A DNA stretch of 64,000 nucleotides from the sequence record NC_101835.1, one strand, 5' to 3'. Within the stretch, counting starts at the first letter, position 1. Every line of letters starts with the position of its first letter. This DNA comes from a phage. The position numbers and the translations under genes were made by a program. Shown one piece after another: positions 7,998 through 8,420 of the stretch. The notes beneath the pieces were generated by a model, which worked only from the letters and a program-made list of their open reading frames with translations, was not told where the DNA came from and did not search any database.

Positions 7998-8043
7998 TGG
8001 TCTCCACGGAGTGATTCGAACACTCGACCTCCTGATCCCAAAG
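7998..8043 (-). tRNA. tRNA 3' half (variable loop, T-arm GAGTG-TTCGAAT-CACTC, acceptor CGTGGAG, encoded CCA), separated from its 5' half by an HNH ORF
   Basis: Canonical T-loop and CCA end; acceptor 3' strand complementary (one G-U) to CTCCGCG at 8414..8420. Confidence 0.4.
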
Positions 8044-8385
8044 TTATGGTAGTTCTAAAAGTCCTGCATGTACGGCAGCATGACAATTTCTACAAAGTAA
8101 TACACAGTTTTTAATTTCATTATCAATTCTTTGCAGACTCCAACCTCTCATTTGAGCAAATTTAGAGTCTTTAATTTTAGGGTCTAAATGGTGAATATCT
8201 AAAGAAACAATCCATTTATCGAACCCGCAATTGATACATTTACCGCCTAACTTGTCTACAGCATACTGTCGTTTCTGCCTCCCAAGATTCATGGTGTACT
8301 CATTGTGACATTTCCCGCATATAGTCTTTTTATGACCATAAAATTTACATGGATCTTCTTCCCCACAACGACTGCATTTGTGCAT
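8044..8385 (-). CDS. HNH endonuclease
   Basis: CxxC...CxxC zinc fingers and HNH motif DIHHLDP...NCVLLCRNCHAAVHAG; lies between the two tRNA halves. Confidence 0.7.
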   Translation of the reverse strand: MHKCSRCGEEDPCKFYGHKKTICGKCHNEYTMNLGRQKRQYAVDKLGGKCINCGFDKWIVSLDIHHLDPKIKDSKFAQMRGWSLQRIDNEIKNCVLLCRNCHAAVHAGLLELP

Positions 8386-8420
8386 CTTTGATTATCTCTA
8401 CCAAGCTGAGCTACGCGGAG
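8386..8420 (-). tRNA. tRNA 5' half (acceptor CTCCGCG, TA, D-arm GCTCAGCTTGGTAGAG)
   Basis: Consensus D-arm sequence and acceptor strand complementary to the 3' half at 7998..8043; ends at the HNH start codon. Confidence 0.4.

Follow-up and report, generated by a model that had tools for sequence, protein, structure and literature searches.

The F-Tfl enzymes of phage T5 belong to the HNH family. According to a 2004 study cited in the available text of PMC2330249, they are site-specific homing endonucleases encoded among the transfer RNA (tRNA) genes of the phage. The same text describes SegB of phage T4, a free-standing homing endonuclease gene (HEG) of the GIY-YIG type that lies in the T4 tRNA cluster; its product cuts within tRNA genes, recognises the universally conserved T-psi-C motif and drives preferential inheritance of the tRNA region, and the gene is absent from close relatives (PMC2330249). 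In Patescibacteria, HNH genes were reported within group I introns at position 35/36 of tRNA-Asn(GUU) (PMC13011429). Here we analyse an HNH open reading frame (ORF) that divides a phage tRNA gene in two, found in a stretch of 64,000 nt from sequence record NC_101835.1 (the window, in what follows), which comes from a Vequintavirus, an rV5-like myovirus of E. coli. We consider it probable (about 0.8) that the resident tRNA-Pro(UGG) gene of this phage was inactivated by the insertion of a free-standing HNH HEG. The searchable literature, which is itself incomplete, yielded no account of a phage tRNA gene split by an HNH gene.

By analogy, the window element would work like the tRNA-cluster homing endonucleases SegB and F-Tfl, and it resembles SegB, as presented in the available text, in being a free-standing HEG embedded in a phage tRNA operon. 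SegB, however, is a GIY-YIG enzyme encoded between tRNA genes, none of which is broken, whereas the window element is an HNH gene that lies inside its presumed target and destroys it. The F-Tfl genes are likewise set apart by their description, which places them between tRNA genes; the available text of PMC2330249 mentions no tRNA split by them. SegB targets a T-arm motif, and the junctions in the family of the window element point instead to the stretch that spans the D and anticodon stems. A stereotyped anticodon-arm junction, and a family that includes forms with a spare tRNA and forms abutting an intact tRNA, further distinguish the window element from both systems. The patescibacterial arrangement is similar in that a distantly related HNH protein (45-49% identity over the C-terminal ~70 residues) is encoded within a tRNA gene, but there a self-splicing ribozyme, an exact exon junction and a surviving tRNA are found, whereas the window insert has no ribozyme, has cost the gene 7 nt and sits at positions 24/32 rather than 35/36.

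The split locus lies on the minus strand and consists of a 5' piece (8420-8396), an insert (8395-8043) and a 3' piece (8042-7998). The 5' piece (25 nt, standard tRNA positions 1-24), with the sequence CTCCGCG TA GCTC AGCTTGGTA GAG, contains the acceptor 5' strand, U8-A9 and the D stem-loop up to G24. The 3' piece (45 nt, positions 32-76) reads TTTGGGA TCAGG AGGTC GAGTG TTCGAAT CACTC CGTGGAG A CCA and provides the anticodon loop UUUGGGA, the 3' strand of the anticodon stem, the variable loop, the T arm, the acceptor 3' strand, the discriminator A and CCA. Between them, the 353-nt insert is made up of a 10-nt leader, ATAATCAAAG (8395-8386), an HNH ORF of 342 nt running from ATG to TAA (8385-8044; 113 aa plus stop), and a single C (8043) separating the stop codon from the 3' piece.

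In phage rV5, the same position directly after tRNA-Met is occupied by an annotated, uninterrupted 77-nt tRNA-Pro(UGG) gene with the sequence CTCCGCGTAGCTCAGCTTGGTAGAG-CGCCTGA-TTTGGGATCAGGAGGTCGAGTGTTCGAATCACTCCGTGGAGACCA. Alignment showed that the two window pieces are 100% identical to its first 25 nt and last 45 nt (1601-1625 and 1633-1677 in the rV5 locus, L001), which places the split tRNA well beyond chance similarity. The initial annotation had proposed, from the letters alone, that a tRNA gene is divided here by an HNH ORF and that its acceptor strands are complementary; both proposals hold, with 7/7 acceptor positions paired, one of them as G-U. It had also named a comparison with related phages as one of the tests, and the relatives were found to carry this very tRNA intact rather than an unrelated one: the gene is uninterrupted in rV5 and in about 100 other vequintaviruses.

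Alignment with rV5 and with the insert-carrying phages 241Ecol014PP and YP-6 showed that the insert stands in for tRNA positions 25-31 (CGCCTGA), that is the final D-stem base C25, then G26, and CCUGA at 27-31, the whole 5' strand of the anticodon stem. The event is thus an insertion with a 7-nt replacement and not a clean interruption. Only the 3' strand (8035-8031) of the native anticodon stem, CCTGA/TCAGG, survives. Since the insert replaces the 5' strand of this stem, the two pieces cannot be put together again as a tRNA, and no route apparent at the level of the sequence restores the gene. The locus lacks a complete cloverleaf, and ARAGORN and Rfam called neither a tRNA nor an intron in it as it stands. 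Joining in the archaeal manner, in trans or through a bulge-helix-bulge, finds no complete set of parts either, with positions 25-31 absent. The pairing CAAAG/CTTTG, the sole complementarity across the insert and the one suggested at first as a possible anticodon stem, turned out to have another origin: CTTTG is the junction C followed by U32-G35 of the native loop, CAAAG belongs to the insert leader, and the pairing is not kept in the relative (L017; loci in our collection are numbered with an L) whose protein is 85% identical.

The ORF matches Pfam PF01844 at 23.8 bits, above the cut-off of 21.4, and PHROG 2255 ('HNH endonuclease') with an E value of 5e-27. The protein has an N-terminal Cys4 zinc ribbon followed by an HNH core with a second Cys4 site and a His-His motif. 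All 33 members of a family alignment share C23, C26, H27, C50, C53, H65, H66, C98, C101, H102 and H106, and at least 90% of them also have C4 and C7; the window protein holds all of these residues. An AlphaFold model of the protein (mean predicted local distance difference test score, pLDDT, 95.3) contains strand-strand-helix elements. Foldseek returned only weak matches in the PDB (best E 0.06), the best-ranked of which were HNH domains: Cap5, the Gme nicking HNH, the HNH domain of Cas9 and T4 endonuclease VII. Neither this comparison, with nothing below E 0.06, nor a sequence search of solved structures gave a close characterised homologue; the sequence search returned only an L31 zinc-ribbon match, which we judged to be spurious. 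Profile matches and conserved residues agree in assigning the product as a predicted HNH (beta-beta-alpha-metal) endonuclease.

A protein 100% identical to the window's was found in 13 phage records, namely 241Ecol014PP, YP-6, VB-EcoM-WM and ten records labelled 'Campylobacter phage'. Among the 117 vequintavirus records that hold the locus at a coverage of at least 80%, the insert is present in 13 (about 11%) and absent from the other 104, which have the intact tRNA-Pro. The ORF is intact, with only 3 synonymous differences among the aligned carriers. The immediate flanks of the insert are 100% identical between the window and the HEG-less phages SophiaRose and phiWec191, and over 3-kb flanks the phages nearest to the window are again HEG-less (rV5_ev146 and nomo at 99.1%, CarlMeissner at 99.6%), with the other carriers less similar (97.8-98.8%). 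The insert therefore sits on mosaic backgrounds, as would fit spread by recombination or homing. The sporadic presence of the element, an empty allele that is an uninterrupted tRNA-Pro, a distribution that does not follow the phylogeny of the flanks, and a further occurrence in a Klebsiella Kaypoctavirus-like contig are all in line with a free-standing HEG. The records labelled 'Campylobacter phage' (MG065644-MG065690, host given as C. jejuni) match E. coli vequintaviruses at 97-99.7% identity over the region and are essentially identical to them at the split locus; they are probably mislabelled or derived from contaminated preparations.

The closest non-identical protein (P0002, 85% identity) is encoded on that Klebsiella contig, L017, 44 kb long and related to the Klebsiella N4-like phages (Kaypoctavirus, Schitoviridae). 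Its ORF is flanked on the left by CACTGCATAGCTCAGTCTGGTAGAGCA, GAAATC and then the ATG, and on the right by TAG, C and TTTGGGAGCAGAGGGTCTTAGGTTCAAATCCTAATGTGGTGACCA. Klebsiella phage VLCpiP4a has the same Asn-Asp-Pro-Ser-Gln order of tRNA genes and the same spacers, with the tRNA-Pro intact; this gene differs from the L017 halves by a single mismatch and holds TCTGC (positions 27-31) exactly where L017 holds its insert. An earlier idea that the L017 halves are foreign to their phage, drawn from the different tRNA-Pro genes of KP8 and BaqKoxi, was overturned by the matching intact allele of VLCpiP4a. On the right, the window and L017 have an identical junction, in which the stop codon is followed by C and then U32. 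On the left they are offset by two bases, the insert following position 24 in the window and position 26 in L017, and in each of them the anticodon stem has had its 5' strand replaced. As aligned, two unrelated phage families each hold filled and empty alleles of their own tRNA-Pro(UGG). Directly after the tRNA cluster of L017, at 2083-2318, Rfam gave a 'tmRNA_permuted' hit of 44 bits (gathering score 47).

The next-closest proteins, P0010 (L102, 79%) and P0003 (L018, 77%), are also encoded between complementary tRNA halves. These halves have other sequences, with acceptor strands CGGAACT in L018 and CAGGGTG in L102, and belong probably to tRNA-Pro as well. The left junction follows position 23 in L018 and position 21 in L102, and their right junctions lie at ~37-38, with the anticodon lost.

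To place these cases in context we assembled 102 loci with relatives of the HNH protein from phage records, IMG/VR, metagenomes and Logan contigs. A link between the family and tRNA genes is evident: it occurs in tRNA clusters and on the tRNA strand, with tRNA genes within short flanks at 79 of the 102 loci, and 218 of 227 flanking tRNAs in the same orientation as the HNH gene. At 38 loci an intact tRNA starts between -40 and +30 nt of the ORF stop. Fourteen of the 36 relatives with at least 54% identity abut an intact tRNA-Pro, as in Salmonella phage Arash, the HNH stop codon usually falling inside the tRNA, within its first 3-24 nt; among the more distant members the adjoining gene is tRNA-Arg(UCU), Asn(GUU), Ile, Lys or Ser. 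In two annotated genomes the coding sequence itself continues into the neighbouring tRNA, by 39 nt into tRNA-Lys in Pseudomonas phage PAK_P4 (L009, 1201-1649; this tRNA-Lys was not called by ARAGORN) and by 24 nt into tRNA-Ser in Yersinia phage fHe-Yen9-04 (L011, 829-1624), and an ORF end that overlaps the 5' end of a tRNA is a recurring feature of the family.

A scan for split tRNAs, which under strict rules found the vequintavirus cases only and under looser rules and with more loci found the rest, revealed three architectures. Four loci (the window, L017, L018 and L102) have a split tRNA and no spare copy. In a second group, the insert between the two remnants carries an intact tRNA in addition to the HNH gene, in either order after the 5' remnant, and where readable this spare is of the same isoacceptor as the split gene: tRNA-Ala(UGC) in L024 (492-1180), tRNA-Arg(UCU) in L050 (690-1235) and tRNA-Pro in L103-105 (UGG in L103, 460-1010). 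An intact tRNA-Ile was also found inside a split tRNA of unreadable identity in L073/74. In the third architecture the HNH gene directly adjoins an intact tRNA, and in some cases a 5' tRNA remnant lies close upstream of it; L035 (558-1241) and L107 (about 575-1021) have 5' tRNA-Pro remnants covering positions 1-23 and 1-15, respectively, each followed downstream by a full tRNA-Pro. The full copy has GGTTTAGAGC where the remnant has GGTAGA in L035, and it differs by one base in L107; these 5' differences may represent an immunity variant. There are integrative elements that target tRNA genes and supply a substitute tRNA end, and the loci L024, L050, L103-105, L035 and L107 are similar in that they introduce either an additional intact tRNA or a fresh 5' part and leave a working copy beside the remnant. 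They differ from integrative elements in having no integrase and no att-site logic and in that the remnant is the 5' part, and the window element has no spare at all.

The left junctions of the family cluster in the 3' strand of the D stem, directly after GGTAGA or GGTAGAG. The split or remnant tRNAs that were readable by eye carry GGTAGAG(C), and the HEG-adjacent intact tRNA-Pro genes mostly deviate there (GGTGGAGC, GGTTTAGAGC, GGTCATGGC, GGTAGCGC and others), with DIJ07P2 as an exception. This pattern, which is a reading by eye and not a formal test, is suggestive of immunity variants.

Taken alone, the window locus is an ordinary insertion of a selfish element, for which we propose the following course of events. 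During co-infection, the HNH enzyme would recognise the intact tRNA-Pro gene of a HEG-less phage and cut it within the stretch that spans the D and anticodon stems. The HEG-carrying genome would then serve as the template for repair of the break, with homology provided by the tRNA halves and flanks, and the HEG would be copied in. Replacement of the 7 nt would destroy the target and make the HEG-carrying allele immune to cutting. The conserved sequence of tRNA genes would let the element jump between unrelated phages; entry into a new phage group would occur through rare repair events that use only short conserved stretches of the tRNA, and this would account for junctions that vary and for the small deletions. 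The host has proline tRNAs of its own, which is probably why the phage can do without this one.

Several points weigh against this scenario. Cleavage of the tRNA-Pro gene, the position of the cut and its nature as a nick or a double-strand break are all inferred from sequence comparison. The 113-aa protein does not have the N-terminal helix-turn-helix extension found in many of its relatives, which makes its site specificity uncertain. The ATG is preceded by a weak Shine-Dalgarno sequence, and expression of the HNH protein is a prediction. Finally, the HEG-carrying vequintaviruses are very similar around the insert, and a single insertion followed by ordinary recombination is not strictly separable from nuclease-driven homing.

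The alternatives can be weighed against the same observations. The initial annotation had left it between an intron-containing tRNA and one inactivated by the endonuclease insertion, and only the latter part stands. An intron, whether group I, group II or protein-assisted, would be removed from the RNA to yield a working tRNA-Pro, and both tRNA ends are indeed intact; distant relatives of the HNH protein are in fact encoded by genuine group I introns, which interrupt the anticodon loop of metagenomic tRNA-Asn(GUU) genes at position 35/36 (L081, 657-1357; L086, 393-1000; L092, 716-1360) and reproduce the arrangement described in Patescibacteria (PMC13011429). In the window, however, removal of the insert does not restore the host gene, as the 7 nt of positions 25-31 are found nowhere at the junctions. 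The insert is 97% ORF (342 nt, plus 11 nt), leaving no space for a ribozyme, and the Rfam covariance models gave no group I or group II intron match, including the ribozyme core RF00028, at E≤1 over 7000-10500. This negative is informative because the same library recognises the group I intron that interrupts the window's terminase gene (5636-6478, 50.3 bits) as well as the introns of the three distant relatives (70-78 bits for Intron_gpI). We also joined trial exons with 5' boundaries from 8405 to 8301 and 3' boundaries from 8140 to 8026 (105 x 115 = 12,075 joins) and ran ARAGORN on each; none gave a credible tRNA. The 261 permissive calls were scattered over 43 amino-acid/anticodon labels, only two of them tRNA-Pro, and the tRNA-Pro join that we inspected was rejected: its anticodon stem has 2 mismatches, and only 2 wobble pairs remain in its D stem. 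A plain join of the two halves gave no tRNA, and the check by tRNA finder proposed at the outset thus returned no credible tRNA-Pro. In L018 and L102 the anticodon itself is deleted. An intron is close to refuted.

The main open alternative, which we regard as improbable, is that the retained halves serve as a tRNA-like end module of the HNH messenger RNA (mRNA), their acceptor stem and T arm pairing across the ORF. Ribonuclease P would trim the 5' end and the 3'-end machinery would trim the other end and protect its CCA, releasing and stabilising the HEG mRNA or throttling it, much like a 'tRNA scaffold'. The predicted fold of 8420-7998 does form the acceptor stem and T arm in both the minimum-energy and the centroid structures, with the ORF where the anticodon arm would be, and the window, L017, L018 and L102 all keep 7/7 acceptor and 5/5 T-stem pairs despite differing junctions and protein identities down to 77%. 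Control of HEG expression by transcript processing in tRNA clusters has moreover been proposed in the available text of PMC2330249. Yet the halves are identical or nearly so to the intact HEG-less allele in both cases where such an allele allows a test (100% for rV5, 1 mismatch for VLCpiP4a), and because of this match a recent insertion explains intact halves without selection. As a whole, the unit folds no more stably than shuffled sequence does (z = -1.08), and relatives of the HNH family manage without flanking halves. A broader scheme, in which an HNH lineage specific to tRNA genes uses D-arm and anticodon-arm DNA as a shared landing pad, has co-opted the halves as an mRNA cap, and owes the immunity of its carriers to spare tRNAs and D-arm variants, seems to us about as doubtful. 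HNH proteins that assist terminases are known in other phages, and the distance from the ORF to the terminase large-subunit gene is about 1.1 kb; one may thus ask whether it is a passenger or accessory nuclease (a packaging partner of the terminase, or a defence or anti-defence factor) that recombined into a dispensable tRNA gene, the more so as cleavage by this protein is a prediction. We hold this to be very unlikely: about 89% of vequintaviruses do without this gene, which is therefore not part of the packaging machinery, the family follows tRNA genes rather than terminases in unrelated phages, and the same tRNA-Pro site is occupied in the unrelated Klebsiella podovirus.

The surroundings of the split locus bear on how the inserted HEG may be expressed. 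Upstream and on the same strand, ARAGORN and Rfam identified a tRNA operon (9156-8432) with Arg(UCU), Tyr, Ser, an odd 99-nt tRNA, Thr and Met, in the order found in rV5. A promoter and terminator scan found a sigma-70-like promoter, TTGACA-17-TAATAT, at the head of this operon (9243-9215, minus strand), no convincing terminator between it and the HNH ORF, and no promoter specific to the ORF; the annotation of rV5 has a sigma-70-type 'P(tRNA)' promoter in the corresponding region, within the tRNA-Arg feature. The 9215-9243 promoter is the likely source of a transcript containing the HNH ORF, which would probably be read at a low level from the tRNA-operon transcript.

Two other features of the neighbourhood were recorded. 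The odd 99-nt tRNA-like gene (8687-8589, minus strand) has an extra arm of ~26 nt and UUUUUAA in its anticodon loop region; ARAGORN labelled it 'tRNA-???' with a 4-base anticodon, and the Rfam tRNA model scored it at 35.5 bits. It is conserved in rV5 (L001, 1334-1432), and its orthologues are labelled tRNA-OTHER, tRNA-TERM or tRNA-Lys in other phage records. The terminase intron, on the minus strand and with an RF00028 score just at the gathering score, interrupts the large-subunit gene between exon ORFs at 6466-6894 and 4464-5552 and carries a 196-aa endonuclease VII-like ORF (5660-6250). It varies among vequintaviruses, with matches in 1-3 pieces, and terL of rV5 is annotated as a 3-piece join.

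For annotation, these results mean that the two tRNA pieces are to be labelled together as a tRNA-Pro pseudogene, disrupted by the insert, and that the ORF is to be named a homing endonuclease; HEG-carrying phages have records that are at present unannotated, or that have no tRNA-Pro there and name the ORF 'hypothetical' or 'HNH endonuclease'. The base-exact pairs of filled and empty alleles in two unrelated phage families make the target of this HNH family directly testable. They extend the picture drawn from SegB and T5, of endonucleases patrolling phage tRNA clusters, to elements that lie inside the target tRNA gene, and suggest how conserved tRNA sequence may let selfish genes cross between unrelated phages and reshuffle phage tRNA sets. 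Such reshuffling matters because phage tRNAs are, according to the available text of PMC13096335, increasingly viewed as tools of counter-defence.

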